In this document: piece by piece, positions 622 to 39,942 of the stretch
Layout of the letters: the number at the start of each line of letters is the position of its first letter
Numbering within the stretch: the first letter of the stretch is position 1
Assembly: GCA_044344795.1 (NCBI GenBank)
Contig: JBIJCF010000006.1
Coordinates: forward strand, 32,245 to 96,244
Direction: 5' to 3'
Length of the DNA: 64,000 nt
Source: Bacteroidia bacterium
Lineage (GTDB): Bacteria > Bacteroidota > Bacteroidia > Palsa-965
Made by a program: the position numbers and the translations under genes
The notes under the pieces: model-generated
Databases searched by the model: none
What the model was told of the DNA's origin: nothing
The model's input: only the letters and a program-made list of their open reading frames with translations

Positions 622-2802
622 CTACGTGTTTTCAATAATGTAGCGTGCAACTTTCTCCATCAAGTGTGCGCGGTCTTTACCCAGTACGTTGTGCAAGTGC
701 AAAGGATAAACAAAGTAGTCCAGCTGAACCCCTTGGTCCACGCATGTTTTCAAATATGCCAGACTGTGTTGCCAAACCACCACATCGTCAGAAGTTCCGT
801 GAATGAGCAACAGATTCCCTTCTAAGCGATCAGCATAACGGAACAAACTGGAATTCTTATATCCAACCGGATTTTGCTCAGGAGTGTCCATGTATCGTTC
901 TGTGTACATGATTTCGTAGTAGCTCCAATCAATTACCGGCCCTCCTGCAACACCTGTTTTATAAAGTCCCGGTGCTCTGGTCATCAACGAAGTTGTCATG
1001 AAACCACCATAGCTCCACCCGTATACCGCCATCCGTTTCCCGTCCACATAACGCAGCGAACGCAAATATTCATTTCCTTTTTTCTGGTCAGCAATTTCTT
1101 CGTCTCCTAAATTCCTGAAGGTTGCTTGTTCAAATTCTTTCCCACGATTTTCACTTCCACGCCCGTCAACAGTAAATACAACAAAACCTTGTTGCGCCAT
1201 GTAGTACAGAAATAAATCACTTCCGCCCAACCACGATTTGGTAATCAACTGTGCATTCGGTCCATTGTACACATACGTGAGCGAAGGATATTTTTTCGTG
1301 GAATCAAAATCAGCAGGTAAAAACATTCTGCACCACAAATCCGTTTTATCGTCTGCAGCTTTTATTGAGAATAATTTCATAGAACATGCTTTGTAATCCT
1401 GTAACGGGTTACGAGAAGTTTTTAAATTATTAATCAGCTTGCCACTGTTGTTGTAAACGTCAATTTCTCTTGGAATTTCGGGCGAAGAAAAATTGGAAAT
1501 GAAACGCGTATACGAATCATTAAACGACGCACGTACCACTCCGTTCGTTCGGCTAATGGCAGTGTTGGTAGCATCGGATATTTTTACTTTATAAATAACA
1601 CGTGTAATATCACCAAACGGAACTCCTTCGTAATAGGCGAATTCTCCTTTCGCATCAACACCAAAAAAATCAGTAACAATTATTCCTCCGGTTCCGTTGG
1701 CTTGTGGTGTTGGTGTAAGTTTAATAACTACTTGACCTTTCGTATTATATAAATACAAGGCATTACAACCTTCTGCTTCGCTTTGCCAAATAAATTGATC
1801 GAGGCGACCCGGCATGAAAACCATGGGATGTAGCGGTTGCACATACTTTTCGTCCTTTTCTTCAAAAATGGTCTCTTCGAAAGCACCTGATGCTGCATTG
1901 TAACGATTCATTTTTAAATAATTCTGATCACGGTTTAATACCGCAACATAAATTGACGCATTATCAGGTGTCCAGGCTACGTTGGTTAAGTATTGCTCTT
2001 TGGGTTCGCCGGTTTGTATTGGAACTTGTTTTCCCGTCTCGATATCGTAAACGATTAAAGTAACCTGATGACTTTTCGCTCCAGCCATTGGATATTTAAT
2101 TTGACGTGATCGCGCAGGCTGCTCACCAACCTCTATAATCGGATAATCCGTTACCATGGTTTGATCCATACGATAGTAAGCCAGATAGCGCCCATTTGGC
2201 GACCAAAAAGTTCCTTTATGAATACCGAACTCATCACGATGCACACTTTGTCCATTAACAATGTTTACATCTGCATCATTGGTAATTGAAATAATTTGTT
2301 CGCCCTTTGCAATGAATAAATTATTGCCTGAGGTGAATGCGATCGCACCGGTTGGCGCTTCATCGAAATTAGCAGCACCCGCAGGAAATGCCGGATTACG
2401 TTGTGCAGTAACTTTTTTCGATTTGGTATTGTAACGCATCTTGTAAGCTCCGTTTTCGTACTCGAATTCCACCGGCGTAACCCAATTCAAGAATGGCATG
2501 TATTCCAGTAATTCTGCTCCCTGAAGTTTTAATGCAGCCGTCTTTTCATTCAACTCATTTAACGTTACTAACTTCTTTGCAGCACCTTTTGAATCCGCAT
2601 CATTAATCATCACGGTAAAGCGACTGTCGATAACATCAACATAGGAATATTGTTTTCCTCCCGGAATCCATGTCAACTGGGCGAGACCTTGAGGGGAAAG
2701 TTGTCCGCGTTTAAGAATGATATCCGATGTAGATAACATCTTCTGTTGTGCAACTGATACAACGTAAAACAATACGAAGACAAAAGTGAGAATCCGTTTC
2801 AT
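622..2802 (-). CDS. S9 family serine peptidase, dipeptidyl-peptidase IV-like (DPPIV N-terminal beta-propeller plus prolyl-oligopeptidase alpha/beta hydrolase domain).
   Basis: 726 aa with a signal peptide. It carries the catalytic nucleophile-elbow motif GWSYGG (VYGWSYGGFMT) and a C-terminal Asp/His region (LLIHGTSDDVV...HNV). Domain order is typical of DPP4. Confidence 0.85.
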   Translation of the reverse strand: MKRILTFVFVLFYVVSVAQQKMLSTSDIILKRGQLSPQGLAQLTWIPGGKQYSYVDVIDSRFTVMINDADSKGAAKKLVTLNELNEKTAALKLQGAELLEYMPFLNWVTPVEFEYENGAYKMRYNTKSKKVTAQRNPAFPAGAANFDEAPTGAIAFTSGNNLFIAKGEQIISITNDADVNIVNGQSVHRDEFGIHKGTFWSPNGRYLAYYRMDQTMVTDYPIIEVGEQPARSRQIKYPMAGAKSHQVTLIVYDIETGKQVPIQTGEPKEQYLTNVAWTPDNASIYVAVLNRDQNYLKMNRYNAASGAFEETIFEEKDEKYVQPLHPMVFMPGRLDQFIWQSEAEGCNALYLYNTKGQVVIKLTPTPQANGTGGIIVTDFFGVDAKGEFAYYEGVPFGDITRVIYKVKISDATNTAISRTNGVVRASFNDSYTRFISNFSSPEIPREIDVYNNSGKLINNLKTSRNPLQDYKACSMKLFSIKAADDKTDLWCRMFLPADFDSTKKYPSLTYVYNGPNAQLITKSWLGGSDLFLYYMAQQGFVVFTVDGRGSENRGKEFEQATFRNLGDEEIADQKKGNEYLRSLRYVDGKRMAVYGWSYGGFMTTSLMTRAPGLYKTGVAGGPVIDWSYYEIMYTERYMDTPEQNPVGYKNSSLFRYADRLEGNLLLIHGTSDDVVVWQHSLAYLKTCVDQGVQLDYFVYPLHLHNVLGKDRAHLMEKVARYIIENT

Positions 2803-2808
2803 GGTTAT

Positions 2809-3081
2809 TTATAATGTGATGATACCTTCAATTTTAGATGCCTGCTCGTAAATAGCAATTACACTCTCCGGGCTTAACATGACTTCCTTTGCTGTAATGC
2901 CGGTATATTTTCCTTTAGATGAAGGCATGGTTGAAATTTCGGCATTTTCGGAAAACAAAGCTTCCACCAGCGCCATATTTCGATTGTCGGAAGTTATAAT
3001 GAACTTAAACATATATAGCTTCGGCCAATCTTTATCTTCTTGTAATTTCTTCAGTAGTTCTGAATAATCAGTGTTTGCCAT
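2809..3081 (-). CDS. DUF493 / YbeD-like small protein.
   Basis: 90 aa. It shares conserved blocks with E. coli YbeD: MPSSKGKYTGITA ~ KPSSKGNYHSVSI, and C-terminal YEQASKIEGIITL ~ YEELGKIDIVRMVL. Confidence 0.7.
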   Translation of the reverse strand: MANTDYSELLKKLQEDKDWPKLYMFKFIITSDNRNMALVEALFSENAEISTMPSSKGKYTGITAKEVMLSPESVIAIYEQASKIEGIITL

Positions 3082-3082
3082 G

Positions 3083-3454
3083 TTATAAATATCCTCCTAA
3101 TTTTCTGCGGTCTCTTTTTGTCGGACGACCTTTGCCTGTAAAGAATACAGAAGGTATCACTTCTTTCGCCACTTTTAATTTTTCATATTCTTCTTGTGGA
3201 GTTAAGTCCTCCATGTACTTTATCACTAAGGCTGCACCTACTCTGGATGTAGGGAAATCAATAACGCGCACTGTTCTGGTGATCATTCCTGTTTTAAACG
3301 AAATAACATCACCAACAATCAATTCTTTGGATGGTTTGGTCGGCTGATCATTCCATTTGATTTTACCCCCTTTAACAGCAGTAGCGGCAAGTGTACGTGT
3401 TTTAAATAAGCGCACGCACCACAACCATTTATCGATCCTGTTATTGGCTTCCAA
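3083..3454 (-). CDS. hslR: Ribosome-associated heat-shock protein Hsp15 (S4-domain RNA-binding protein).
   Basis: The S4 motif RIDKWLWCVRLFKTRTLA matches E. coli HslR LDKWLWAARFYKTRALA. GGK..N.QPTKPSK and the basic C-terminus are also conserved. Confidence 0.8.
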   Translation of the reverse strand: MEANNRIDKWLWCVRLFKTRTLAATAVKGGKIKWNDQPTKPSKELIVGDVISFKTGMITRTVRVIDFPTSRVGAALVIKYMEDLTPQEEYEKLKVAKEVIPSVFFTGKGRPTKRDRRKLGGYL

Positions 3455-3521
3455 AGCATACCAAAGGTAAGCACTTTACGTCGGGTTTCGCGGATTCACA
3501 GGAAGCGGTACTTTTGCACCT

Positions 3522-6770: not shown

Positions 6771-9179
6771 TTGATAAACGTTACCCGTATGAACCGTTTT
6801 CTCATCCTCTTGGTTGCGCTTTTGTTTTCCGCAGCCGGTTTCTCTCAAAGCACACAAACAATTCGCGGAACTGTTGTTGATGCAGTTTCAAAATCGCCAC
6901 TTCCCGGCGTAATCGTGATGCTGTTTAAGGACTCGTTACGATTAAAACCTGCCGTAACTGATGTGAACGGCGTATTTCGTTTTGCTGATGTTCATGTCGG
7001 ACGCTATGATCTGCAAGCACGTTTTACGGGATATCAAACACTGTACGCGTCCAATCTGATTCTTACTGCAGGCAAGGAGTTAGTGCTCAATCTGGAAATG
7101 GAAGAGCTGGTGATCAATAAACAGGAAGTAGTTATTACCGCCGATAAGAAAGAAGGCACAGTAAACGAAATGGCGACAGGAAGTGGTCGAATGTTTTCTG
7201 TGGAAGAGACGAATCGTTATGCAGGAAGTCGAGGAGATCCGGCACGTATGGCATCCAACTTTGCCGGTGTTCAGGGCGCTGATGATTCCCGAAATGATAT
7301 TGTCGTACGTGGTAATTCGCCAAGCGGTGTGCTGTGGCGTCTAGAGGGAGTGGATATTCCTAATCCGAATCACTTTGCTATTGAAGGAACTACGGGAGGT
7401 CCAGTGAGTATTTTAAATAATAAAGTGTTGTCGAATTCAGATTTTTTCACGGGTGCATTCGCTGCAGAATATGGTAACAGCATAGCTGCTGCATTTGATT
7501 TGCGTATGCGCAATGGTAACAATGAAAAGTTTGAGTTCAATGGTCAGTTTGGTTTTTTGGGTACGGAGTTATCCGCGGAAGGTCCGCTTAAAAAATCTTC
7601 CGGCGCATCATTCCTGGTGAATTACCGCTATTCGACATTGCGCATGTTTGAAGCTGCGAACATTCCGATTGGAACCGGCGCTGTCCCTTCGTATATGGAT
7701 GGTGCTTTCAAATTGAATTTTCCATTGAAGAACGGTGGCAACCTTTCTTGGTTCGGAATTGGTGGTAATAGTAAAATTGATATTATCGTGAGTGAATACA
7801 CGGCGTATGCAGATGAATTGTACGGAGAAGATAGTCGCGATCAATATTTCAGAAGTGGCATGTTTGTTTCCGGTGTTGTTTATGCAAAGCCACTGAATGA
7901 AACTACATTCTTTCGTGCCGTTGTTGCAGGGAGCAGACGGTATTCTTCTGCACACCATGATTTGGTATGGAGAAGTCCTTCTTTTAATCTCGATTCCATC
8001 ACGCCCAAAATGGGATATCGCAATGATGAAGATCGCGTATCAATGAATTGGTATATTTCAAAAAAACTCTCTTCACGTACAACATTGAAGGCAGGAATGT
8101 TCAACGACTTGTACCGAAATACGCTGCAAGACAGTATTCATAGTGAAGTAACGTTCTTGTTTTATAATCGACAGGATTATTCGGGTTCTTCATTTCTCAT
8201 TCAGCCATACGCACAATTGCGTTTTCGTCCGAACGATAAACTGACATTGAATGCCGGTTTGCACGGACAGTACTTTACACTAAACGGAAGTACAGCCGTG
8301 GAGCCGCGTTTGGGAATGCGCTACGCAATTAACGATCTGAATTCAGTTCATGTTGGAGTGGGTATGCACAGTCAGATGTTGCCGGCATACGTGTATTATT
8401 CGCATCGCCCTTCGTTAACCGCTGATAATAATTTGCACAACAAAAATCTTGATTTCATCAGAAGTTATCATTCCGTGGTAGGGTATGATCGCATTCTTTC
8501 TGAGAGCATGCGTTTAAAAGCGGAGGCGTATTATCAGTACTTGTATGATGTTCCTGTAGATGTTGCTGCATCTTCATTTTCTGTGCTGAATCAAGGTACA
8601 GGATTCAGTCGTTATTTCCCGGATTCGCTGGTAAATTCGGGCACCGGTCAGAATTATGGTGTAGAATTAACGCTTGAAAAGTTCTTTAGTAAAAACTATT
8701 TCTTCATGACCACACTATCTCTGTTTGATGCAACCTATAAAGGAAGTGATGGTGTGACGCGCAATACCGATTTTAATACTCGTTATGCATTTAACGCCTT
8801 AGCAGGAAAGGAATTTAAAATCAACGACAAACAAACCATTCAGTTAGGAACAAAACTGACGATGGCCGGAAAGCGTTGGTATACGCCAATTGATACTGCT
8901 GCATCTGCAATAGAAAATGACGAAGTGTTGGTGGATTCGCTGCGAAATACGGTGCAGTTTTCACGTTCTTATTTGCGTGTAGATATACGCGTGGTATGGC
9001 GCATGAATACAAAAAAGCTTACACATGAAATTGGTATTGACGTAGTCAACGTGTTAAATAGAAAAAATATTTTAGGGTTAACGTATTCGCCTAATCCTGT
9101 AACACCTTCCGCAAATCCGGTGGTGGAACAATATCAATTGGGATTGTTACCGCTGTTCTATTACAGTATTGACTTTTAG
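6771..9179 (+). CDS. TonB-dependent outer-membrane receptor with an N-terminal carboxypeptidase-regulatory-like domain.
   Basis: Signal peptide, then a CarbopepD_reg-like block (IRGTVVDAVSKSPLPGVIVML), a plug domain (DIVVRGNSPSGVLWRLEGVDI), and a long beta-barrel with an aromatic C-terminus. Confidence 0.85.
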   Translation: MINVTRMNRFLILLVALLFSAAGFSQSTQTIRGTVVDAVSKSPLPGVIVMLFKDSLRLKPAVTDVNGVFRFADVHVGRYDLQARFTGYQTLYASNLILTAGKELVLNLEMEELVINKQEVVITADKKEGTVNEMATGSGRMFSVEETNRYAGSRGDPARMASNFAGVQGADDSRNDIVVRGNSPSGVLWRLEGVDIPNPNHFAIEGTTGGPVSILNNKVLSNSDFFTGAFAAEYGNSIAAAFDLRMRNGNNEKFEFNGQFGFLGTELSAEGPLKKSSGASFLVNYRYSTLRMFEAANIPIGTGAVPSYMDGAFKLNFPLKNGGNLSWFGIGGNSKIDIIVSEYTAYADELYGEDSRDQYFRSGMFVSGVVYAKPLNETTFFRAVVAGSRRYSSAHHDLVWRSPSFNLDSITPKMGYRNDEDRVSMNWYISKKLSSRTTLKAGMFNDLYRNTLQDSIHSEVTFLFYNRQDYSGSSFLIQPYAQLRFRPNDKLTLNAGLHGQYFTLNGSTAVEPRLGMRYAINDLNSVHVGVGMHSQMLPAYVYYSHRPSLTADNNLHNKNLDFIRSYHSVVGYDRILSESMRLKAEAYYQYLYDVPVDVAASSFSVLNQGTGFSRYFPDSLVNSGTGQNYGVELTLEKFFSKNYFFMTTLSLFDATYKGSDGVTRNTDFNTRYAFNALAGKEFKINDKQTIQLGTKLTMAGKRWYTPIDTAASAIENDEVLVDSLRNTVQFSRSYLRVDIRVVWRMNTKKLTHEIGIDVVNVLNRKNILGLTYSPNPVTPSANPVVEQYQLGLLPLFYYSIDF

Positions 9180-10828
9180 ATTTTGAAATAGTCTTTCAAA
9201 TCTTCAATCAGCTGTTTCGGATTTTCGAGATGCGCCGACTTCTTGGTTTCAGTATAAACAGTATTCAATTTGTCTCTGTACTGTTTTCTCTCGCTGAGCA
9301 GCCACTGTGCAGCATAGTACAACGCTTTTATGGTTAAATCATTCTCCGGAAGTTTGGAGCTGCTTGACGTGATTTTTTCGTAACGTTTATAACACTCTTG
9401 TACACGCTGATATTCCCCCAAATTGAAATACGCCATAATCAACGTAGCGAACAGCTGGTCGTATAACCGGTGAAACGCCACCTGCTGATAATTGAACAAC
9501 AAACCTTCAAGAAGCTCAGTTACTTTTTTCTGATCACGTTCACTACCCATCAGCAGATAACAACAATAAATATTGTTCATATTGATGTGTCGCATATGCA
9601 TATTCTCTTCATGCCACGATGCGTTTTTAAGAATACGTTCACACGTTGCACGACCAAGTTGAAGCTGTTGCTTAATATCTTCCGGTAAATGTTCATTCCA
9701 ATTTTTTCGATACGATCTGCCGTATTTACTTACAATTCCACTAATCTGAATACTCAGGAATGCGATCTCTGCCGCTTTCAGATAGTTTTTCCAGAACAAT
9801 GGTGTGTTTTTCTTTTGCAACAATCGTGATGCTTCTTTTTGCATTTCCTCCTGCGGAAGTTGCAAAATCAAAAGCTTTAAGCGCAAATAATCAACGTTCA
9901 ATTCAATGTCATCCGAGAATGGAAATACCACGTAGGGATTCTTTTCAAGTTCCTCGGCAATAGTATTTAATTCTGCTAAAGTCTTTTCTGAATAGAAACG
10001 CGGATCGTTTAGAAAATGTAAACTGTAACAACTTCCGTATCTGCTTAGAATCCGAACAGCAAATGACGTATGGTGATGCAGCGATGCGAAAAAACTAAGA
10101 TGCTTTTCATTCTCCACAAGATCTATAACCGACTTGTCCTTGAAATGCAAGTTGCTTCGTATGTAAAGGTACAAACTGTTTAGCGCGAGCTCAGATTCAA
10201 TGTTAATATGATTTCTTTCGAGATAGCGAACGGCTTCCGATTTACGCTCACGTATGTATGCTTGTTGTGCCAGAAACTGAAGAATGGGACGAGCTGTGGA
10301 GTAATCTTCAATTTTTTCTGCAATGTCGAGTGCTATTTCAGCAAGCTGCTCCGCCTTGTTAACTTTAGCTGTATTCACTAACCGCTCTATTCTACCAATA
10401 GTGCTATTGAGGTATGATGGATAATTTCTGCTAAGAAAAGCTGTGAGTTTAAATGCGTGGTGCGCAAGCTGGAAAAATTTTCGTTTTTCTACAGCGCCGG
10501 CTTTTTCGTAAATGAGTTTGCAAAGTTCGTCAGAGTCTTTTTCTGTAATTCCCATTTTCCGGGATTCTTGAATAAGGCGAAGTGGCAATTCGGCTTTAAT
10601 AGTTTTAAAATGTTCGCACAACGCCTCGTAATGGAAGTCGTCGAGTAGGACAATCACTTTCTGTATACTTAGCATATGTCGGTACTTGCTTCTGGCTGTT
10701 GCAACAGAATCTTTATAAAACCTTCGGACTAAAGTTAAACATTTGTCTATGTTAATTGTAATGTCAACGTGTTCGGTCGATTTGATCTTGTTTTCGCGAG
10801 TTGGTATACAAAAACTGATTTTGAACAA
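9176..10828 (-). CDS. Hypothetical all-alpha protein (550 aa) with no recognisable motif.
   Basis: Long ORF with uniform coding composition. Predicted helix-rich with possible TPR-like repeats. No signal peptide and no catalytic signature. Its stop overlaps the convergent TonB-dependent receptor stop by 4 nt. Confidence 0.5.
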   Translation of the reverse strand: MFKISFCIPTRENKIKSTEHVDITINIDKCLTLVRRFYKDSVATARSKYRHMLSIQKVIVLLDDFHYEALCEHFKTIKAELPLRLIQESRKMGITEKDSDELCKLIYEKAGAVEKRKFFQLAHHAFKLTAFLSRNYPSYLNSTIGRIERLVNTAKVNKAEQLAEIALDIAEKIEDYSTARPILQFLAQQAYIRERKSEAVRYLERNHINIESELALNSLYLYIRSNLHFKDKSVIDLVENEKHLSFFASLHHHTSFAVRILSRYGSCYSLHFLNDPRFYSEKTLAELNTIAEELEKNPYVVFPFSDDIELNVDYLRLKLLILQLPQEEMQKEASRLLQKKNTPLFWKNYLKAAEIAFLSIQISGIVSKYGRSYRKNWNEHLPEDIKQQLQLGRATCERILKNASWHEENMHMRHINMNNIYCCYLLMGSERDQKKVTELLEGLLFNYQQVAFHRLYDQLFATLIMAYFNLGEYQRVQECYKRYEKITSSSSKLPENDLTIKALYYAAQWLLSERKQYRDKLNTVYTETKKSAHLENPKQLIEDLKDYFKI

Positions 10829-10888
10829 TTAAAGAGATTTTTTTTCACTCGACAGAGAACTGATGTTTGTCCAACCTAATTTTAAATA

Positions 10889-12241
10889 ATGAAAAACATA
10901 TTGTTACTGCTTTGCATTTTACTGCTCGGCGAAATTTCTGCCCAGTCTTTTGCTATTGGACATCGTAATGTAATTTACATCGATCCCTCCCGTAATAACA
11001 GACAGATCGAAACTGAGATTTATTATCCTGCTAACATTGCAGGTGATAATGTTGCAATAGCGCAGGGACAGTTTCCTGTTATTTCATTCGGTCATGGTTT
11101 TGTGATGGTGTGGAGCGCGTATCAGAATATCTGGTCTTCTTTAGTGCCGCAAGGTTACATTGTTATGTTTCCAAGAACCGAGGGTAATACATCCCCAAGC
11201 CACGCTGAATTTGGCCGCGATCTCGTATTTTTAATTGGGAAAATGCAGTCAGAAGGAACAACAGCTAATTCTCCGTTCTTCGGTGCAGTTGGAGCTACGA
11301 GTGCAATTATGGGTCATTCTATGGGCGGTGGCTCTTCCTTCCTTGCAGTAGAAAATAATACTACGATTACTACGATGATTACTCTTGCTGCAGCCAATAC
11401 AAATCCTTCATCTGTTGCTGCTGCTGCAAATATTAGTGTTCCATCATTAGTGATCGCCGGTGAAAACGACTGTGTAGCGCCTCCTGCACAACACCAAATC
11501 CCCATGTATAATGGACTAAGTTCTTCATGTAAAACTTACGTTGAAGTTAAAGGAGGCGGACATTGCTACTTTGCCAACAATAATTTTAACTGTTCTTTTG
11601 GTGAAGGGACTTGTACTCCGAATCCGACCATTACCAGAGCGGAGCAACAAGATGCCACACAGGATTTGATGAATTTGTGGCTGGCATATTTCTTAAAAGG
11701 AGATTGTCCTTCATGGGAATCATTCGGGGATTCATTGCTTACTTCGCCTCGCATTACTTCTCAAAGCACATGTCTGTACCCACCGCCCGTTGTTACAATT
11801 AATGCAAATGTCCTGACATCTTCTCCCGCTGTAACGTATCAATGGATGCTAAACAATGCCGCAATTCCCGGTGCTGATTCTTCATCCTATACGATTCCCG
11901 GAATTGGATCTTACCATGTGGAAACAACATATTACAATTCTTGTGTTTACGTTTCAGCTCCGATAGTAATTACAGGCACAGGAGAAACTGACACACCAAG
12001 TACATTTGAAATATTTCCGAATCCTGTTACACATGCAGTAACACTACAATGGAATTCCGGTTCAGTTATTCCGGATGCAGTTCAGATTATTGGAATCAAT
12101 GGTGTTGTCATTAAGGTGCAGCAAGTGTCAACCGGAAACGCCATACAAATTCAAGTTGAGGATTTAGCTCCGGGTTTCTACATGATACAACCACTGCGTA
12201 ATGGTCATGTGTTGACCACACATAAAATGATTAAACAGTAA
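10889..12241 (+). CDS. PETase/cutinase-like polyesterase (dienelactone-hydrolase-fold alpha/beta hydrolase) fused to a T9SS C-terminal sorting domain.
   Basis: Signal peptide. AIMGHSMGGGSSF matches PETase GVMGWSMGGGGSL (the Ser nucleophile). LVIAGENDCVAPP matches LIFACENDSIAPV (Asp). VKGGGHCYFANNN matches INGGSHSCANSGN (His plus a disulfide Cys). The C-terminal about 80 aa form a T9SS CTD (FEIFPNPVTHAVTLQW...GFYMIQP). Confidence 0.8.
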   Translation: MKNILLLLCILLLGEISAQSFAIGHRNVIYIDPSRNNRQIETEIYYPANIAGDNVAIAQGQFPVISFGHGFVMVWSAYQNIWSSLVPQGYIVMFPRTEGNTSPSHAEFGRDLVFLIGKMQSEGTTANSPFFGAVGATSAIMGHSMGGGSSFLAVENNTTITTMITLAAANTNPSSVAAAANISVPSLVIAGENDCVAPPAQHQIPMYNGLSSSCKTYVEVKGGGHCYFANNNFNCSFGEGTCTPNPTITRAEQQDATQDLMNLWLAYFLKGDCPSWESFGDSLLTSPRITSQSTCLYPPPVVTINANVLTSSPAVTYQWMLNNAAIPGADSSSYTIPGIGSYHVETTYYNSCVYVSAPIVITGTGETDTPSTFEIFPNPVTHAVTLQWNSGSVIPDAVQIIGINGVVIKVQQVSTGNAIQIQVEDLAPGFYMIQPLRNGHVLTTHKMIKQ

Positions 12242-12247
12242 GCGCGC

Positions 12248-12928
12248 TTACAATTGAAACCAGTTAATCGGTTCTTTCCCGAATTCAATCAGATAGTAAT
12301 TGGTTTTACTGAAATGTCTGCAACCGAAGAATTTCGTAGCAGAAAAAGGGGAAGGGTGCGCTGCTTCCAGAATTTTGTGTTTATCAAGATTGATTAAACT
12401 TTTCTTTTCACGGGCATGAGCGCCCCAAAGAATAAAGACAAGTCCTTCACGATGATCAGAAAGATGACGAATAACGTTATCCGTAAATATTTCCCAGCCT
12501 TGTCCGCGGTGTGAGGCCGGTTGTGCTTCTCGAACGGTAAGTGTTGTGTTTAATAGCAAAACGCCTTGTTTCGCCCAACCTGATAAATCACCGGTTTTTG
12601 GGTATGGCACATTCAGGTCTTTTTGCATTTCCTTAAAAATATTTACCAACGATGGCGGATGCTTAATGCCCGTAGAAACCGAGAAACACATGCCGTTCGC
12701 TTGCCCGAATCCGTGATACGGATCTTGTCCGATAATAACAACTTTAACTTCTTCGAAAGGCGTGTGATTGAAGGCATTAAAAATTAAAGGGCCGGGAGGA
12801 TAAACCGGAAATTGTGACTTTTCTTCCAACAAGAATTGCTTGAGTGCTAAAAAGTAGTCTTGTTCGAATTCGTTCTGTAGTGCTTTCGCCCAACTGGGGT
12901 GAATCTGCGGATAAACGGAAGTGGACAT
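12248..12928 (-). CDS. ung: Uracil-DNA glycosylase.
   Basis: Family 1 UDG motifs: GQDPYHG (water-activating loop), the HPSPFSA region, and LLLNTTLTV. Confidence 0.95.
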   Translation of the reverse strand: MSTSVYPQIHPSWAKALQNEFEQDYFLALKQFLLEEKSQFPVYPPGPLIFNAFNHTPFEEVKVVIIGQDPYHGFGQANGMCFSVSTGIKHPPSLVNIFKEMQKDLNVPYPKTGDLSGWAKQGVLLLNTTLTVREAQPASHRGQGWEIFTDNVIRHLSDHREGLVFILWGAHAREKKSLINLDKHKILEAAHPSPFSATKFFGCRHFSKTNYYLIEFGKEPINWFQL

Positions 12929-13295: not shown

Positions 13296-13637
13296 ATGCA
13301 TGTAAACGAACTTTCCGGCATCGATGATCTTAATCACGCGGATCAATTATCGCGTGAACTGCCAACCGGTGTAGTTTTATTTAAGCATAGCACACGCTGC
13401 TTTATTAGTCGAAGTGCTTGGCAGCGTTTTAATGATGAATGGAGTTCAGACAACAGCACTCCCCTGTATTATCTTGATTTGTTAGAGCACCGAGACGTCT
13501 CATCGGAAATTGCTCAGCGTTATGGAATTCAGCATCAGTCGCCTCAAGTTTTACTGATACGCAATGGGATCTGTGTTTATCATGCTTCACATGAAAACAT
13601 CAGCGCACCGGAAATAATAAAATTTACAGCCAGTTAA
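13296..13637 (+). CDS. ytxJ: Bacillithiol-system redox-active protein YtxJ (monothiol thioredoxin-like, DUF2847).
   Basis: VLFKHSTRCFISRSA matches B. subtilis YtxJ FLLKHSTTCPISRAA (T-C-x-I-S active site). HQSPQVLLIRNGICVYHASHENIS matches HESPQVLLIRDGKVVWHASHHQIT. Confidence 0.8.
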   Translation: MHVNELSGIDDLNHADQLSRELPTGVVLFKHSTRCFISRSAWQRFNDEWSSDNSTPLYYLDLLEHRDVSSEIAQRYGIQHQSPQVLLIRNGICVYHASHENISAPEIIKFTAS

Positions 13638-15966: not shown

Positions 15967-18900
15967 TTGACAATGAAACGCAGAACTTTTACACTTGCCG
16001 GAACCGGAATTGCTGCAGTCGGTTTGGCTGTTTTCGCGAGCTTCGTGATGAAGAACGATACAGCTTCCAAGTATCGTGGTCACGTTGCTGTTAACGTGGT
16101 TAATGGCGAAATCACTTATGATGACTTTGGTGCCAAAGGCGCAGCGCAGTGGTGGTTTGATCGCATGAAAGATGCGAATACTGGTGAATTGAATTTTCAG
16201 GAAATGGCGCGCATGAAGCAATTGGCTTCTCAAACGCATACCGCAGCACGCAACTCAAGTGCAGCGAGTATCCAGGCAACATCTTGGAATGAAATTGGTC
16301 CGGACAACGTGGGTGGAAGAACTCGCGCAATGATCATCGATCGCAACAACACGCAGCACATGTTCGCAGGTGCGGTGAGTGGTGGTTTGTGGGAGTCATT
16401 TGACGGAGGTTTAAATTGGCAAAAGAATTCAGGTTTCTTCTCGATTCCTGATGTAAATATCAATATTGCCAGCATGGCGCAAGCATCTAACGGTGATTTG
16501 TATGTTGGAACAGGTGAAGGAATGTATTATTTCTTCGGTACCGGTGCCGGTGGATTTATCGGTGGTGGTATCTACAAGTCTGTAGATGGCGGAGTTACAT
16601 GGAGTGTGTTATCTGCAACAGTTCCTCCAACTGCTAACAACGCTACTGCAAACTGGGTGGCTGTGAATAAAATTGTGGTTGATCCGAACGATCCAAACCA
16701 CGTGTTCGCATCAACTAACAAAGGTTTACGTGTTTCTTCCGATGGTGGTCAGACTTGGGTAACCCCGGCTGGTTTACCGGCAACAGGCGAATCCAGTGAT
16801 GTTGACGTGCCGGGCAACGGTACAGTTATTACTACCGCAAGTGGTAAGCCATGGCGCTCTACCGACAATGGTGCAACATTTACAAATGTGGGTACTTCTG
16901 CTCAAGGATTTTTCTCCAGCAGTTTATCGCGCACGGAAATTGGTGTCGCTCCCTCTGACCCTAATTTCGTATATGCATTCTGCGCTAGTAACGCAGGTGC
17001 ATTGGCAGGTGTTTACGTTTCTATTGATGGCGGTGCAACTTGGCAGCAAGCGGCAGGTGCAGGTAATGCACAGTTTGAGCCGTTCGGTACAGGTCAAGGT
17101 GATTATGACAACGTTGTAGAAGTTGATCCGAACAACAAGTTTCGCGCAATCTTTGGTGGCGTGGAGTTGTGGGATTTTGAATTGGTACAAACCAATCCTG
17201 TTGGTGGTCAGTGGACACGCCGCGCTTTAGAGTTCCCTGCTTCGTTGTTCAATCCATGGTACGTTCACTCTGATAAACATGTGATTTTATATCACCCAAC
17301 TGCTCCCGGAACTATTTTCGTTGGAACAGACGGTGGTATTTTCCGTTCACAGAACGATGGTGCTACATGGACTCCAATGAACAATGGATACAACGTAACA
17401 CAAGCATATTCTGTAGCAATTGATCCTTTCGCACCTAATCGTGATCGCGCGATGATTGGTACTCAGGACAACGGTACACAGTACGTAAACGGCACAGGAA
17501 ACACATTGATGTCTTCATTCGCTACAAGTGGTGGTGATGGCGGTCATTGCGATCTGTCTTTGTTATTCCCGGGTGCAACTTTCCAAACTGTGTATTACGG
17601 CTCAACTTCTCGTTCTAATAACGGGGGGCAGTCTTCCGGAGATTTCTTCTCTGAGCGTATGACCCCTGCAGCTTATGGACAGCCGGGGTTTGCAGCATTC
17701 GTAACTCCTATTCGCTTGTGGGAATCATTTAACGATCCGTTGAGTTCTGATTCGATCACAATGGTGAATGATACAATTGAGCAAAACAAACACGTTACAA
17801 CAGGAGCAACAGCAACCTATAGTAGCACATTAACAGTTCCTACTCCAATTGCGAATCCTGCTGCTACAGTGATTCTTAACTCTATTCGTTTTACTGTCGC
17901 TAACAGTTCTGCAACTGTGGATGGTGCAGGTAATATTTCAGGTGATGCAACCGGTACAGTTCAGTCTAATGGTTCTTACACTATTACATGGAATTCTACT
18001 CCTGCTGCTAACCAAGTAATTAAAGCATACTATCAAGTAAGTTACGCTGCCGGAACAGTATTCACTTTGAACTCTAACGTTCAAGGAAGAACCTTCAGCT
18101 ATGCCACTCCATTTACAATCAATCCAAATGATACTGTGCGTATTCAAGATCCGGTACAGGCTCGTTTAGCGGTTGGATTTACCGGAAATAACGGTATCTG
18201 GATTACTAAGCGTCCTTTGGATTTCTCTTCAACTCCTGAATGGTTGAAAATTGGAGGAAACCGTTCTTTACCAAGTGCTTATTCCGGTGAAGCTTCACAA
18301 ATGACATGGTCTGTTGATGGTAACTACTTGTTCGTTGGAACTGCCGGTGGTTCTGTTTTCCGTTTCTCTAATATCGCGGCTGCAGTTGACTCTGCGAATG
18401 GTGATTCTGAAGCTAATGGAGGTGCAATTGCGAATCCTACATGTGTTATTACATGTCACTTGATCGGTTCATTCTCTCGTCCTGTTACAGGCTTAGATGT
18501 TGATCCAAACAATCCGAACAACGTTGTTGTAACAACAGGTAACTACGGCGCAACACAGAACGTACATTATTCTTCAGTAGGTACTACCGCTACTTCTGTA
18601 AGCGGAACGTTCGTAAACAAAACAGGTAACCTGAACACATTGGGTGGTGTACCTTGCTTATCAGTTTCATTTGACAAGTACACACCGAATCGTGTATTGG
18701 TTGGTACAGAGCATGGAATGTTTGAAACTTCAAACATTACAGCTGCTACTCCAACCTATGTATCATCAAATGCTAACTTGGATAACGTGGCTGTAGATAT
18801 GATTCGTCAGCAGCGCTTCGAGCCTTGGCATGTTCCGAATGCGGGATGTTTCTACATCGGAACACATGGACGTGGTATATGGCGCGATGATTCCAGCTGG

Positions 18901-19212
18901 CAGATTCCAAACAGCATCAATGAACCATCTAACGGATCTTCACAGCCTGTAGTTGCTAATGATGTTAAAGTATTCCCGAACCCTGTTGTAGATAACAGCT
19001 TCGTAACATTTACAACTGCTCGTAGCGGTAATGCTATCGTTCAGATCTTTGATCTTTCGGGTAAGATGGTTTCAACTCAGAATTATCAGCAGTTAGCTGC
19101 AGGCAAGAACACAGTTGAATTCAACGCAGCTAATATGGCTAAAGGAACTTACATTATCGTAATTATTCAGGATAACAAACGTATCGGCTCAGGTCGCTTC
19201 GTGAAGATGTAA
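15967..19212 (+). CDS. Large secreted BNR/Asp-box repeat (sortilin/VPS10-like beta-propeller) protein with a T9SS C-terminal sorting domain.
   Basis: 1081 aa. Multiple S-x-D-x-G-x-T-W Asp-boxes (SFDGGLNWQ, SVDGGVTWS, SSDGGQTWV, STDNGATF, SIDGGATWQ, SQNDGATWT). C-terminal T9SS CTD (VKVFPNPVVDNSFVTFT...GTYIIVIIQDNKRIGSGRFVKM). Confidence 0.75.
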   Translation: MTMKRRTFTLAGTGIAAVGLAVFASFVMKNDTASKYRGHVAVNVVNGEITYDDFGAKGAAQWWFDRMKDANTGELNFQEMARMKQLASQTHTAARNSSAASIQATSWNEIGPDNVGGRTRAMIIDRNNTQHMFAGAVSGGLWESFDGGLNWQKNSGFFSIPDVNINIASMAQASNGDLYVGTGEGMYYFFGTGAGGFIGGGIYKSVDGGVTWSVLSATVPPTANNATANWVAVNKIVVDPNDPNHVFASTNKGLRVSSDGGQTWVTPAGLPATGESSDVDVPGNGTVITTASGKPWRSTDNGATFTNVGTSAQGFFSSSLSRTEIGVAPSDPNFVYAFCASNAGALAGVYVSIDGGATWQQAAGAGNAQFEPFGTGQGDYDNVVEVDPNNKFRAIFGGVELWDFELVQTNPVGGQWTRRALEFPASLFNPWYVHSDKHVILYHPTAPGTIFVGTDGGIFRSQNDGATWTPMNNGYNVTQAYSVAIDPFAPNRDRAMIGTQDNGTQYVNGTGNTLMSSFATSGGDGGHCDLSLLFPGATFQTVYYGSTSRSNNGGQSSGDFFSERMTPAAYGQPGFAAFVTPIRLWESFNDPLSSDSITMVNDTIEQNKHVTTGATATYSSTLTVPTPIANPAATVILNSIRFTVANSSATVDGAGNISGDATGTVQSNGSYTITWNSTPAANQVIKAYYQVSYAAGTVFTLNSNVQGRTFSYATPFTINPNDTVRIQDPVQARLAVGFTGNNGIWITKRPLDFSSTPEWLKIGGNRSLPSAYSGEASQMTWSVDGNYLFVGTAGGSVFRFSNIAAAVDSANGDSEANGGAIANPTCVITCHLIGSFSRPVTGLDVDPNNPNNVVVTTGNYGATQNVHYSSVGTTATSVSGTFVNKTGNLNTLGGVPCLSVSFDKYTPNRVLVGTEHGMFETSNITAATPTYVSSNANLDNVAVDMIRQQRFEPWHVPNAGCFYIGTHGRGIWRDDSSWQIPNSINEPSNGSSQPVVANDVKVFPNPVVDNSFVTFTTARSGNAIVQIFDLSGKMVSTQNYQQLAAGKNTVEFNAANMAKGTYIIVIIQDNKRIGSGRFVKM

Positions 19213-29061: not shown

Positions 29062-30477
29062 CTATTTGGTTTTAATCAACTGTGTGGAAGAGCGGAACGT
29101 GCTTCCGGAAATGATAATGTGATAAGCTCCGGGCGTTAAAAATCCTGCTTTTACTTCCAGTAACGAAGTGCCTGCAGATTGGAATGAAGAGCCTGTCATT
29201 ACTTCACGACCACTGACATCCACAATGCTGTAGCGCACGTTTTGTGCCTCGGGCAGTTCAATACTTACTGAGAAATTCTCGTTGAACGGATTGGGGTATG
29301 CAGCAACAGCAACAGATCCTTGATGCTCCGGTGTACTTGCCAAAATGGCCTGAGAAATATCAAGTACATACAATCCGTTTTGCATGTCCGAAGCGATCAG
29401 TAAGCCCGACGGTAAATCGGTATAAGCACCCCAACAACCGTGATAGTTAGCAGTATAATTAGGTGCGTTCACTAATGTGTCGGTGTCGAAATAACCGATG
29501 CGAACAACATTATAAGGATCTGTGATGTTAAAAATTTGAACGCCGTCGGTGTAATTCGCCCCAATTAAAACATCGTTGCCGATGATATATGGATTATGTG
29601 GTGTATTTCCTTGATTGGAGCGGAACACGGATGTTACTGTGATGTTACCCAAATTAGAAACATCAACCGCTTTTACACCACGTCCATCAGGAACTTCATC
29701 CATAAATATGAGCGTGTTTCCGTTTCCTGTGAGAAATGAACTGTGGTTATAGCCTTGTTCCGGATAACTAGTTAATCGAGCTAATTCGGTAAACGTATTC
29801 GCCAGCGTATCAAATTTGTAAATAAATAATCCGTCAAAGCCTCCTGATACATAACACGTGTCATTACGAATAAACATGTCGTGAACGGTTGCCGGTGTCG
29901 TATAGAATTGATCTAGTGTAGCAAGTAATTGAGGTTGTTCCGGATTTGCTAAACTGTAAACTGCCATGGAGTAGTACTGTGAATTTCCTACAAGCGTAAC
30001 GCTGCCTCCATATAGTTTGTCACCATCTACGTATATCGTATGGCAACGCTCAAAGTACGTCGTGCCATCGTGAATTACGTGAATAGAGTCGGGTAGATAT
30101 TGCAAGTCTACAATTTGAAAAGCATTGCTTCCACCATCATCACTCACGATATAGCAGTAGTTTTTATAAGTCTTTACTTCATGCCAGATATGATCTTGCT
30201 GGCGTCCCGGTAAATAACCAACCTGTACAGGAGCAGCAGGATTCGTTACGTCAATAAAATAACAACCCGTTGATGATCCCATGATAGCATATTCTCTATT
30301 CGTAGAGTCATCGTGCCAACCCCAGATACCCTGAAAGCGTATGCCATACACCGGCTCTGACGGTTCTGTAGCATTTACCCAGTGTCCGACTAATGAAATA
30401 TTTTGTGAACTGTAATTTTGTGCAATTGCACCCAATGAAAGCAAACAAACAAACGCGAGCGCGGTTATTAATTTCAT
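29062..30477 (-). CDS. Secreted beta-propeller-like protein (LVIVD / choice-of-anchor-B-like repeats) with a T9SS C-terminal sorting domain.
   Basis: Signal peptide. Repeated hydrophobic-Asp blocks (YCYIVSDDGG, LLIASDMQNGLYVLDI, VRIGYFDTD). C-terminal T9SS CTD (AAYPNPFNENFSVSIEL...GAYHIIISGSTF...KTK). Confidence 0.55.
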   Translation of the reverse strand: MKLITALAFVCLLSLGAIAQNYSSQNISLVGHWVNATEPSEPVYGIRFQGIWGWHDDSTNREYAIMGSSTGCYFIDVTNPAAPVQVGYLPGRQQDHIWHEVKTYKNYCYIVSDDGGSNAFQIVDLQYLPDSIHVIHDGTTYFERCHTIYVDGDKLYGGSVTLVGNSQYYSMAVYSLANPEQPQLLATLDQFYTTPATVHDMFIRNDTCYVSGGFDGLFIYKFDTLANTFTELARLTSYPEQGYNHSSFLTGNGNTLIFMDEVPDGRGVKAVDVSNLGNITVTSVFRSNQGNTPHNPYIIGNDVLIGANYTDGVQIFNITDPYNVVRIGYFDTDTLVNAPNYTANYHGCWGAYTDLPSGLLIASDMQNGLYVLDISQAILASTPEHQGSVAVAAYPNPFNENFSVSIELPEAQNVRYSIVDVSGREVMTGSSFQSAGTSLLEVKAGFLTPGAYHIIISGSTFRSSTQLIKTK

Positions 30478-37208: not shown

Positions 37209-37330
37209 GGTTGATCGAATTTAATGTTCAACATACGACAGGGTTTCATTAATCGGGGATGATTTATGTTATTTTTGCCCCTGTCTTTGCTAGTAAAGTT
37301 ACAAAAATCATTCCAAAATAGATTGTTAAA

Positions 37331-39870: not shown

Positions 39871-39942
39871 TAGCCCGTAGGGGAATCGAACCCCTGTTTA
39901 CAGAATGAAAATCTGCTGTCCTAACCCCTAGACGAACGGGCC
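39871..39942 (-). tRNA. tRNA-Glu (anticodon UUC).
   Basis: The reverse complement reads GGCCCGT-TC-GTCT-AGGGGTTA-GGAC-A-GCAGA-TTTTCAT-TCTGT-AAAC-AGGGG-TTCGATT-CCCCT-ACGGGCT-A. It has a cloverleaf with a G1·U72 wobble, U33, anticodon TTC, A37 and a TTCGATT T-loop. CCA is not encoded. Confidence 0.85.

Follow-up and report, generated by a model that had tools for sequence, protein, structure and literature searches.

Gene structure and domain organisation

Within the 64 kb stretch of DNA analysed here (hereafter the window), a single ATG-to-stop open reading frame (ORF) on the forward strand spans positions 10889..12241 and encodes a protein of 450 aa (450 codons plus stop). The ORF listing held no rival frame of at least 80 aa at 10889-12241 on either strand, and an identical protein was called on five independent metagenome contigs. 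The gene is real and intact, and the three active-site motifs quoted in an earlier, sequence-only reading of the locus were all located in its translation. The gene and its product comprise the following features, given with the evidence for each:

10889..12241, + strand: complete gene, whose PETase-fold esterase product also has an Ig/PKD-like domain and ends in a T9SS type A C-terminal sorting domain (CTD); ORF, Pfam/NCBIfam matches
10889..10942, + strand: predicted Sec signal peptide, residues 1-18 (MKNILLLLCILLLGEISA); read from the sequence
10943..11776, + strand: catalytic alpha/beta-hydrolase domain of PETase/cutinase fold, residues 19-296; PF12740, AlphaFold (AF2) model, Foldseek, hhalign
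11090..11110, + strand: GHGFVMV, residues 68-74, with Phe71 aligned to IsPETase Tyr87 (oxyanion hole, aromatic); alignments
11312..11332, + strand: nucleophile elbow GHSMGGG, residues 142-148, with Ser144 as nucleophile and Met145 as oxyanion residue; alignments
11384..11398, + strand: LAAAN, residues 166-170, with Ala169 where IsPETase has its 'wobbling' clamp Trp185; phmmer, profile hmmsearch
11453..11482, + strand: IAGENDCVAP, residues 189-198, with catalytic Asp194, Cys195 (Asp+1) and Val196; alignments
11552..11569, + strand: GGGHCY, residues 222-227, with catalytic His225 and Cys226 (His+1); alignments
11564..11635, + strand: family-specific insertion after the catalytic His, residues 226-249 (CYFANNNFNCSFGEGTCTPNPTIT); alignments, model
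11777..11977, + strand: Ig/PKD-like beta-sandwich spacer, residues 297-363, with a YQW motif and Cys352; model, homologue, Foldseek
11978..12004, + strand: flexible linker TGETDTPST, residues 364-372; model
12005..12238, + strand: T9SS type A CTD, residues 373-450; PF18962, TIGR04183

The assignment of the catalytic domain to the PETase/cutinase-type alpha/beta hydrolases, already proposed from the letters of the sequence, was borne out by profile, model and structure searches alike. The Pfam PETase family PF12740 matched residues 43-234 with 80.6 bits (cut-off 28; E=1.6e-22). A PDB search recovered IsPETase chains at E ~5e-18 when the single sequence was used, a family profile brought PETases in the PDB to 7e-24, and hhalign gave a probability of 99%. 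The AF2 model (pLDDT 88.9, with blocks of the catalytic domain mostly above 90) superposed on IsPETase structures in Foldseek with a TM-score of ~0.8, normalised to the target, at 22-23% identity. The block-by-block alignment with IsPETase claimed earlier needs qualification, the PETase alignments covering residues 43-234 at only 22-33% identity. Outside these alignments lies a conserved N-terminal strand pair (residues 22-48), and at their other end they stop at residue 234 or before.

The C-terminal extension, previously put at ~130 residues, amounts to ~154 and consists of two domains (297-363 and 373-450) joined by a linker of low model confidence. The first of these was modelled as all-beta with a pLDDT of ~90. 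It returned no Pfam match of its own, while the aligned domain of a homologue (P0130) scored 26.1 bits against the PKD family PF00801 (cut-off 23.5) and also matched Ig_7; moreover, the C-terminal part of the model matched tandem Ig-like domains in Foldseek. The linker has a pLDDT below 50 at positions 364-369 and is only 11% identical to the corresponding segment of two orthologues (L001 and L002).

A conserved active site and purifying selection on the gene

Conservation was counted over 291 aligned relatives, or fewer where a position has no residue. In the nucleophile elbow, H143, S144, M145 and G146 were found in 290 of 290 relatives, D194 in 291 of 291, and H225 together with the adjoining C226 likewise in all 291. 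Phe71 is kept in 288 of the 289 relatives with a residue there, and the neighbouring H69, G70 and M73 do not vary wherever a residue is present; V196, at the position of IsPETase Ile208, occurs in 289/291. Loss of a triad or oxyanion-hole residue, which the sequence-only reading had named as grounds for abandoning its assignment, was thus not seen, since Ser144, Asp194, His225, Phe71 and Met145 are all kept. By homology and invariance, Ser144, His225 and Asp194 would carry out catalysis, and the oxyanion hole would be formed by the main-chain amides of Phe71 and Met145.

The insertion after the catalytic His is ~13-15 residues longer than the beta8-alpha6 loop of IsPETase and contains Cys235 and Cys242. 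It was modelled with a short helix (233-240; pLDDT of 71 in the block 231-240), and its residues F228, N232, C235, F237 and G238 vary little or not at all among the relatives. Four aromatic residues, Y227, F228, F233 and F237, fall within it.

The gene evolves faster than its surroundings: its product shares 82% identity with the L001 and L002 orthologues, whereas most flanking genes reach 94-98%, and its dN in the same comparison is ~0.10 as against ~0.02 for the flanking genes. Taken by itself, this pattern would suit a decaying gene or a non-catalytic surface protein in which the esterase fold persists as a binding module or pseudoenzyme. However, the divergence sits mainly in the linker and the CTD, with the catalytic domain 87-88% identical; dN/dS relative to both orthologues is 0.055-0.066, which still denotes strong purifying selection; the ORF is intact and its product recurs unchanged on the five contigs; and the triad, the oxyanion residues and the GxSxG motif are invariant across ~290 relatives. 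Given the invariance of the triad and the low dN/dS, we reject loss of function, to which we assign a negligible probability.

Predicted disulfide map

In IsPETase, the disulfide DS1 (C203/C239) joins positions Asp-3 and His+2. The esterase instead has cysteines directly after the catalytic residues, at Asp+1 (C195) and His+1 (C226), and carries Gly191 and Phe228 at the positions of C203 and C239. Type II PETases as classified by Joo et al. are reportedly marked by DS1 (C203-C239) in the active site and by a Trp at subsite II (W159); with Gly191, Phe228 and His143 at the three positions, the esterase does not fall into that class, and His143 at the Trp159 position is the state of cutinases (type I).

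Pairing of the cysteines was predicted purely from their presence and absence in the 291 relatives and by parsimony on a neighbour-joining (NJ) tree. C195 and C242 occur together in 142 relatives and are jointly missing from 149, with no discordant case, and this split maps to a single evolutionary event on the tree. For C214 and C295 the corresponding counts are 260 relatives with both, 25 with neither and 6 discordant, their joint loss having occurred in at least three independent events. C226 and C235 are invariant. C273 was lost in five independent events, only in lineages that lack the middle domain. From these patterns we infer four disulfides: C195-C242, C226-C235, C214-C295 and an interdomain C273-C352. 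The cysteines beside the catalytic Asp and His, described earlier as a flanking disulfide, thus occupy other positions than DS1, and each co-occurs with a cysteine of the insertion and not with the other. Judging by co-occurrence, the protein would fold in the periplasm with up to four disulfides, of which C195-C242 and C226-C235 would anchor the loops of the Asp and the His to the post-His insertion, C214-C295 would tie strand beta8 to the C-terminal tail, and C273-C352 would staple the Ig/PKD-like domain onto the catalytic domain.

Predicted export by Sec and the type IX secretion system

Prediction of secretion found support at both ends of the protein, with a Sec signal at the N-terminus and a genuine type A CTD of the T9SS at the C-terminus. 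Inspection of the N-terminus, made without a predictor, revealed a basic start (MKN), a hydrophobic core and the junction A18|Q19. Of the 291 relatives, 279 retain the Gln at position 19 and 287 have A, S or G at position 18. The predicted cut by signal peptidase I (SPase I), directly ahead of Gln19, agrees with the Bacteroidetes Q-rule for cleavage before Gln (PMC5837995).

At the other end, the CTD, recognised as such in the sequence-only reading, scored above cut-off in both relevant families: Por_Secre_tail PF18962 at residues 375-448 with 37.3 bits (cut-off 27; E=3.4e-9), and TIGR04183 at the extreme C-terminus with 35.2 bits (cut-off 23). It carries the motifs PNP, G-x-Y and a terminal K-x-x-K, with P377, G429 and Y431 near-invariant, and the model and Foldseek indicate a seven-stranded Ig-like sandwich. 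Three further genes in the window encode proteins with such a CTD, and these cargo genes suggest that the host uses a T9SS; a scan of 31 window ORFs turned up no gene for a T9SS core or machinery component. The distribution of CTDs correlates with the presence of the T9SS, and the published PorU site reads T/E/D/N | G/A/S (PMC10202324). PorU probably cleaves the esterase within the linker (364-372) or at T362|G363 just before it, where T|G dipeptides fit.

[quoted passage not shown]

Substrate range and the missing aromatic clamp

As a whole, we consider it likely that the gene encodes an extracellular serine carboxylesterase with a PETase/cutinase-type alpha/beta-hydrolase fold, exported by Sec and the T9SS of an uncultured, Flavobacteriales-like bacterium, and that it is not of the type of the proven PETases. 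One residue that bears on the latter point is that of the aromatic clamp. Both phmmer and a profile hmmsearch placed W185 of IsPETase on A169 of the esterase, while hhalign left it in a gap beside P173; under any of the three alignments, residues 166-181 contain no aromatic residue. Ala169 is found in 291 of 291 relatives. The W185A variant of IsPETase is 'highly impaired' (PMC5948967), which tells against the polyesterase or PETase function put forward earlier. Likewise, the NCBIfam equivalog for the BHET hydrolase BdeA (NF051441) scored 66.5 bits, far below its cut-off of 520. Meaningful turnover of PET by the esterase is therefore doubtful as judged from its sequence, and if the enzyme acts on PET at all, we expect no more than a weak, promiscuous activity.

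Ala at the clamp position and the remodelled post-His loop suggest that the natural substrate is most likely a non-aromatic ester, for example an aliphatic polyester or a lipid-like ester, a conclusion drawn from one absent residue plus that loop. On the other hand, the aromatic-rich insertion could supply an alternative aromatic wall, so that an aromatic polyester is a possible substrate, too. A genuine PET-active polyesterase equal to PET27 and PET30, secreted by the T9SS and depolymerising PCL, BHET and amorphous PET about as fast as they do, would share with those enzymes the Pfam family, fold, triad and CTD that we find here, and Phe71 and Met145 correspond to the first two residues of their F-M-W/Y motif. 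PETase-fold enzymes are, moreover, promiscuous, and PET30 tolerates a Tyr at the clamp. Against this stand the invariant Ala, the BHET hydrolase score and the comparisons with PET30 and PET38 given below, and we regard such an activity as improbable. Were it nonetheless present, the esterase would represent a third, very widespread lineage of T9SS-exported Bacteroidota PETases, would bear on estimates of environmental plastic turnover and would offer a new, heavily disulfide-stabilised scaffold.

Small lipid esters rather than polymers are the substrates in another alternative, in which the protein is a secreted lipase-, phospholipase- or chlorophyllase-type enzyme acting on acylglycerols, PAF-like lipids or the phytol esters of chlorophyll. 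The Chlorophyllase family PF07224 produced a partial match to residues 58-156 (29.6 bits against a cut-off of 26), PAF-AH_p_II matched as well, and among 75 sampled representatives of the family the two were found in 71 and 36, respectively. PDB entries named 'triacylglycerol lipase' (7ykq and 7yko) were hit at E ~1e-17, and aliphatic acyl chains would be consistent with the lack of an aromatic clamp. However, the Chlorophyllase and PAF-AH_p_II matches are partial, weaker than that to PETase, stem from models of related alpha/beta hydrolases and overlap the same stretch, and beyond the short post-His helix the model displays no lid domain of a true lipase. Polymeric and small-molecule substrates are not separable in silico. 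We consider this alternative possible, if rather unlikely.

A large Bacteroidota family with housekeeping neighbours

The family to which the esterase belongs is not rare, as had been supposed, but comprises at least 662 representative clusters at 50% identity (E<=1e-30) and occurs in at least 562 species genomes. A profile built from three Crocinitomicaceae relatives retrieved 3482 clusters at 90% identity (E<=1e-10). All 75 sampled representatives matched PF12740, and 55 of the 75 carry the same CTD. By its sequence relationships, the esterase is a member of a large, already annotated, Bacteroidota-centred subfamily distinct from the proven PET hydrolases; no biochemical characterisation was found in the literature for any member of this subfamily.

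A further reading, which we hold tentatively, sees here a distinct, Bacteroidota-wide clade of T9SS-exported, cutinase-fold esterases with a natural substrate of their own, as opposed to weak PETases. Its marks would be the invariant Ala at the clamp, the cysteine-stapled, lid-like insertion after the His, the His+1 cysteine and the interdomain disulfide; its substrate might be, for instance, an aliphatic biopolyester or a lipid ester that abounds in soil and freshwater.

The gene neighbourhood offered no clue to the substrate, the conserved neighbours at 69 loci being either housekeeping genes (UDG, OsmC, YtxJ, LipA, UvrB) or unannotated. The only widely conserved one, found at 26 of the 69 loci, encodes an unannotated helical protein of 499 aa; it is absent from L002, and we therefore claim no functional link. 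As to regulatory signals, nine sigma-70-like sites were found against 5.5 +/- 2.0 expected (~1.8 s.d. above the shuffle mean), none of them in the intergenic region upstream of the esterase gene. That upstream region also lacks an exact copy of the Bacteroidetes TAnnTTTG element, the only candidate being GATGTTTG at 10863-10870. Both the promoter and the terminator scans were uninformative.

The value of these observations is modest: they flag a large, uncharacterised esterase family and provide a disulfide map that can be tested. They also indicate that homology-based 'PETase' labels over-reach, as fold and triad are kept in this family while the aromatic clamp is lost in every member examined.

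Comparison with characterised and candidate polyester hydrolases

By sequence and by fold, the esterase is matched best in the PDB by IsPETase and the type I cutinases (LCC, TfCut2). Equivalent residues, IsPETase first, are S160-S144, D206-D194, H237-H225, M161-M145, Y87-F71, I208-V196 and K227-K215. IsPETase differs in having Trp185 where the esterase has Ala and in the DS1 cysteines C203/C239, at whose positions the esterase has no Cys; in the esterase, in turn, the beta8-alpha6 insertion carries two extra cysteines, and an Ig/PKD-like domain and a CTD are appended.

The sequence-only reading had equated the architecture with that of PET27 (Aequorivita sp., WP_111881932) and PET30 (Kaistella jeonii, WP_039353427). 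These two enzymes, also from Bacteroidota, indeed share with the esterase the PETase fold, the Ser-His-Asp triad, Phe and Met at the oxyanion positions, a signal peptide, a C-terminal T9SS type A (PorC) domain and the lack of a disulfide at the DS1 positions of IsPETase. However, they measure ~365 aa (compared with 450 here), their core being followed only by a PorC/T9SS CTD of ~100 aa (PMC8767016), and they lack the extra Ig/PKD-like domain (~67 aa) that the esterase has between core and CTD. The post-His loop is much longer in the esterase, and four disulfides are predicted where PET30 has one (C262-C285). The extra domain and the different disulfides set the architecture of the esterase apart from that of PET27 and PET30 and add to the case against an equal, PET-active enzyme. 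At the clamp, PET27 has Trp and PET30 Tyr, with which it still works (PMC8767016), where the esterase has Ala. In Foldseek, PET30 (7PZJ) is 20% identical to the esterase and thus no closer than IsPETase (22-23%), and 7pzj was not among its best 60 PDB sequence matches; the study describing PET27 and PET30 defined homologues by 50% identity and 80% coverage (PMC8767016).

A better fit is provided by PET38 (Fluviicola taffensis, WP_083800582), a candidate of Zhang et al. 2022 (PMC8767016), whose likeness to the esterase we judge by published descriptors only. PET38 has 447 aa (450 in the esterase), a SignalP cleavage site at 19-20 (18|19 by the Q-rule in the esterase), a D-H-S triad, a Phe-Met-Ala 'binding motif' (equivalent to F71, M145 and A169) and an alignable core ending at 279, after which a C-terminal extension of ~168 aa includes a PorC/T9SS domain. 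The 80 best genome loci included none from F. taffensis, so the identity of PET38 to the esterase is probably ~42% or less; nor was PET38 named among the 120 matches listed from the profile search with the Crocinitomicaceae relatives. PET38 ranks as an untested or inactive candidate, being poorly expressed and without activity in every assay (PMC8767016), and hence provides no functional precedent for the esterase; that this enzyme, with the same F-M-A motif, a similar length and a similar C-terminal extension, showed no activity also weighs against PET hydrolysis here.

Two other affiliations were discarded. The dienelactone hydrolase (DLH) label that JGI attaches to relatives is not supported, as PF01738 scored 14.8 bits, below its cut-off of 21. 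PET93 and PET94, DLHs that lack a PorC domain and fall in a separate cluster, are rejected as relatives on those two grounds. Together with PET46, PET93/94 represent other scaffolds that slowly degrade PET without the PETase-CTD architecture, which, like the Tyr of PET30, counts against our view of the esterase as no proper PETase.

Finally, RefSeq lists members of the subfamily as 'poly(ethylene terephthalate) hydrolase family protein' or 'T9SS type A sorting domain-containing protein', names that derive from annotation and not from assays. The RefSeq 'PET hydrolase family protein' is a 449-aa member from Parvicella tangerina (P0173), which belongs to the same subfamily as the esterase and shares its three-domain architecture, with PETase and Por_Secre_tail matches flanking a PKD-like middle domain, but branches in another clade, which lacks the C195/C242 pair. 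Parvicella tangerina is a cultured carrier of the family.

An intact, selected esterase gene

The esterase is encoded by a single uninterrupted ORF (10889-12241, + strand) that runs from ATG to stop and specifies 450 aa, with no overlapping ORF of at least 80 aa on either strand of this interval. The motifs quoted in the sequence-only reading were located at residues 142-148 (GHSMGGG), 189-198 (IAGENDCVAP) and 222-227 (GGGHCY). Profile searches assigned residues 43-234 to the Pfam PETase model PF12740 (E=1.6e-22; 80.6 bits, cut-off 28) and residues 375-448 to Por_Secre_tail, PF18962 (E=3.4e-9; 37.3 bits, cut-off 27), with TIGR04183, the NCBIfam T9SS type A sorting domain, scoring 35.2 bits (cut-off 23). 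The top PDB sequence matches were variants of Ideonella sakaiensis PETase (IsPETase; E ~5e-18 with the single sequence, 7e-24 with the family profile). Given these domain-model and PDB matches, the PETase-like, T9SS-tagged ORF noticed by that reading is confirmed as real, far beyond chance. Gene calls on five metagenome contigs, one of them a 683-kb ENA contig, give the identical protein, and dN/dS against orthologues in two related MAGs is 0.055-0.066. The esterase is a selected, expressed-type gene, and an artefact is excluded.

Domain anatomy and predicted export

An AlphaFold2 model built with 41 family sequences (mean pLDDT 88.9) resolved the product as follows.

Domains of the esterase in the AlphaFold2 model (gene on + strand)
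N-terminus: signal-peptide helix
Residues ~20-296: alpha/beta-hydrolase domain
Residues 297-363: all-beta middle domain
Between residues 363 and 373: short disordered linker (pLDDT <50 at 364-369)
Residues 373-449: second all-beta domain

IsPETase structures ranked first in a Foldseek search of the PDB (target-normalised TM ~0.8, identity 22-23%). Modelled separately, residues 297-450 (pLDDT 89.5) matched pairs of Ig-like domains in tandem, as well as PorU over its C-terminal part. The middle domain itself has no Pfam match; the aligned region of homologues matches PKD (26.1 bits, cut-off 23.5, in homologue P0130), Ig_7, PKD_3 and BiPBP_C, and we assign it as a predicted Ig/PKD-like spacer. 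What had been described as ~130 extra residues ending in a C-terminal sorting domain (CTD) thus amounts to ~154 residues and two domains.

The N-terminus, MKNILLLLCILLLGEISA with QS following the cut, is a predicted Sec signal. Its A/S/G-Gln junction is conserved (Gln in 279 of 291 relatives in the family alignment) and corresponds to the "Q-rule" of Bacteroidetes signal peptidase I substrates (PMC5837995). By analogy with established T9SS biology (PMC10202324), the precursor would be exported by Sec and cleaved before Gln19, and would fold and form its disulfides in the periplasm; after recognition of the type A CTD it would cross SprA/Sov and pass to PorV, and PorU would take off the CTD. 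The published PorU site (T/E/D/N before the cut, G/A/S after it; PMC10202324) is matched by candidate Thr-Gly dipeptides where the disordered linker begins (362-365), so CTD removal is proposed to occur there. The mature enzyme might then be either released or surface-attached.

A conserved catalytic centre without the aromatic clamp

Residue equivalences to IsPETase were drawn from three alignments.

Active-site residues, IsPETase to esterase
S160 to S144: nucleophile Ser
D206 to D194: catalytic Asp
H237 to H225: catalytic His
M161 to M145: oxyanion residue
Y87 to F71: oxyanion-hole aromatic
I208 to V196
W159 to H143

Wherever the position is present (290-291 sequences of the 291-sequence alignment), S144, D194, H225, M145 and H143 do not vary; F71 is kept in 288/289 and V196 in 289/291. 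Loss of a triad or oxyanion residue, which would have undone the proposed assignment, was looked for in the alignments and did not appear. Homology and conservation therefore indicate a serine carboxylesterase (Ser144, His225, Asp194) with an oxyanion hole formed by the Phe71 and Met145 backbone amides; with these residues retained, it is expected to be catalytically competent.

The "wobbling" clamp residue Trp185 of IsPETase falls on Ala169 in two alignments and in a gap in the third. Residues 166-181 contain no aromatic residue, and Ala169 is invariant (291/291). In IsPETase, W185A is "highly impaired", the residue being critical for pi-stacking on PET (Austin et al., PMC5948967), and every verified PET hydrolase of the PF12740 type in the tables of Zhang et al. 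has Trp or Tyr here; Phe-Met-Ala is given there for PET38 alone, an inactive candidate (PMC8767016).

Predicted cysteine pairs and the insertion after His

The mature protein has eight cysteines, which we followed in pairs across the 291 relatives.

Co-occurrence of cysteines (both present, both absent, discordant)
C195/C242: 142, 149, 0
C214/C295: 260, 25, 6
C273/C352: 276, 11, 4 (C273 kept, middle domain absent)
C226/C235: 291 (invariant), 0, 0

Gains and losses were placed on an NJ tree by Fitch parsimony. C214 and C295 were lost jointly at least three times, and C273 was lost five times, each time in a lineage where the middle domain is gone as well. The C195/C242 split is one event on the tree, and because of this its co-occurrence is weak as independent evidence. 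The most economical predicted map pairs C195-C242, C226-C235, C214-C295 and, between domains, C273-C352. The cysteines beside Asp and His had been taken for the IsPETase active-site disulfide. That bond, C203-C239, lies at Asp-3 and His+2, where the esterase has Gly and Phe, whereas its own cysteines lie at Asp+1 (C195) and His+1 (C226). Two of the predicted bonds would instead anchor the loops bearing Asp and His to an insertion specific to the family (residues 226-249), which follows the His and is ~13-15 residues longer than its IsPETase counterpart. In the AlphaFold2 model the insertion carries a short helix (233-240), the lowest-confidence part of the catalytic domain.

Because the clamp is missing and this loop is remodelled, we infer a non-aromatic ester (an aliphatic polyester or lipid-like) as the natural substrate, and expect activity on PET, if any, to be weak and promiscuous. 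Conversely, the insertion, being rich in aromatic residues (Y227, F228, F233, F237), might rebuild an aromatic wall. Quite different scaffolds have also been seen to hydrolyse PET. We propose only tentatively, at somewhat less than even odds, that the subfamily has a natural substrate of its own and a lid of distinctive kind, stapled by disulfides.

A large Bacteroidota family

Scanning all 1.84 billion cluster representatives with the mature catalytic domain retrieved 662 (clusters at 50% identity) at E<=1e-30; relaxing the cut-off to E<=1e-10 raised this to 1105. Word-indexed searches with the window protein gave 1681 clusters (90% identity; E<=1e-5); queried instead with a profile built from three Crocinitomicaceae relatives, they gave 3482 (90% identity; E<=1e-10). 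At least 562 genomes, scanned at one per species, encode a relative; the best 80 matches among these, all MAGs, belong to Flavobacteriales (Crocinitomicaceae, Vicingaceae, Parvicellaceae), Chitinophagales, Saprospiraceae and Bacteroidales. A 449-aa Parvicella tangerina member is labelled "poly(ethylene terephthalate) hydrolase family protein" at NCBI, and JGI labels relatives "dienelactone hydrolase". The proposed rarity is contradicted by these threshold-dependent cluster counts (662-3482) and by the species genomes: this is a large Bacteroidota subfamily, already annotated yet biochemically uncharacterised.

PF12740 was found in 75/75 sampled representatives and Por_Secre_tail in 55/75. The catalytic module is always N-terminal, followed by 0 to ~1000 residues of Ig_7, PKD, SprB, fn3 and BiPBP_C spacers; representatives P0257-P0404 span 300 to 1311 aa. 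Of the accessory domains, Ig_7 is carried by 11 of the 75, SprB repeats by 5, P_proprotein by 4 and fn3 by 3. Dockerin type I, seen in 4/75, hints at display by a non-T9SS route in some members.

Genomic neighbourhood

The esterase gene is monocistronic. It converges with a uracil-DNA glycosylase gene (12248-12928, - strand) and diverges, head-to-head, from a gene for a 499-aa, cytoplasmic-type, all-helical protein (9176-10675, - strand) that has no match in Pfam, NCBIfam or PDB sequences. The latter is the most conserved neighbour (26/69 loci, median gap 93 bp) and is missing in the close relative L002; its longest ORF starts at TTG 10828, gene callers and homologues placing the start at ATG 10675. 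The remaining conserved neighbours are housekeeping genes, and no substrate clue emerged among conserved neighbours at the 69 related loci.

Further T9SS cargo genes in the window (all with a type A CTD)
15967-19212, + strand: 1081-aa BNR/sortilin-like protein, glycosylhydrolase-like match
29062-30477, - strand: 471 aa, no further recognisable domain
55380-57857, + strand: 825 aa, weak trypsin-like peptidase match

With the esterase this makes four cargo genes in 64 kb, and the three further ones support a T9SS-proficient host. No T9SS core genes were identified among the 31 scanned window ORFs.

In the closest genome match, the uncultured Flavobacteriales MAG locus L001, flanking genes are mostly 94-98% identical to those of the window (the small YtxJ gene 79%) and the esterase only 82%. 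The window comes from an uncultured relative of this MAG. Against L001 and L002, the non-synonymous rate of the esterase is 4-5x that of its neighbours (dN ~0.10 vs ~0.02, dS similarly saturated at ~1-1.9), the linker (11% identity) and CTD (67-70%) taking most of the changes; the large cargo gene at 15967-19212 shows no acceleration. A bacillithiol-system YtxJ homologue (13296-13637, + strand; TIGR04019, 1e-33) likewise departs unusually far from its L001/L002 orthologues (79-81% identity, dN/dS 0.12-0.19; flanking genes mostly 94-98%).

The exact Bacteroidetes -7 promoter motif TAnnTTTG lies 5-65 nt before the start codons of many window genes (for example at 3509, 6766, 14063, 15902, 19302 and 49451). 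The esterase gene is preceded, 19 nt upstream of its ATG, by no better than GATGTTTG (10863-10870, + strand), which departs from the motif at one position. The only gathering-level Rfam matches in the window were a single tRNA gene (39871-39942, - strand) and a cobalamin riboswitch (RF00174; 61896-62082, + strand; 90.3 bits), which lies just downstream of an ORF whose end is at 61847. A 183-aa GTG-start ORF (37205-37756, - strand), whose ~425-nt overlap with the prolyl-tRNA synthetase gene (37331-38812, + strand) falls in the 5′ part of that gene, is probably spurious.

Relation to described Bacteroidota PETases

Of the initial interpretation, the PETase fold, triad and T9SS CTD hold, whereas rarity, an IsPETase-type disulfide and the architecture of PET27 and PET30 do not. 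These two enzymes have 365-366 aa, a PorC domain of ~100 aa alone after the core, a Trp/Tyr clamp and one disulfide (PMC8767016). The esterase differs in length, post-core domains, clamp residue and predicted disulfide number; with its extra domain, Ala at the clamp position and 20% Foldseek identity to PET30 (7pzj), no nearer than to IsPETase, it falls outside that subcluster. Two dienelactone hydrolases active on PET, PET93 and PET94, were considered as kin; they lack a PorC domain and belong to a different cluster. By published descriptors alone, PET38 from Fluviicola taffensis is a close fit (PMC8767016). It has 447 aa and a Phe-Met-Ala motif, its core stops at residue 279, and its C-terminal extension of 168 aa includes PorC. 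SignalP predicts its cleavage at 19-20, one residue from the Q-rule cut between residues 18 and 19 of the esterase. PET38 expressed poorly and showed no activity in any assay (PMC8767016); its apparent closeness to the esterase offers only a lead.
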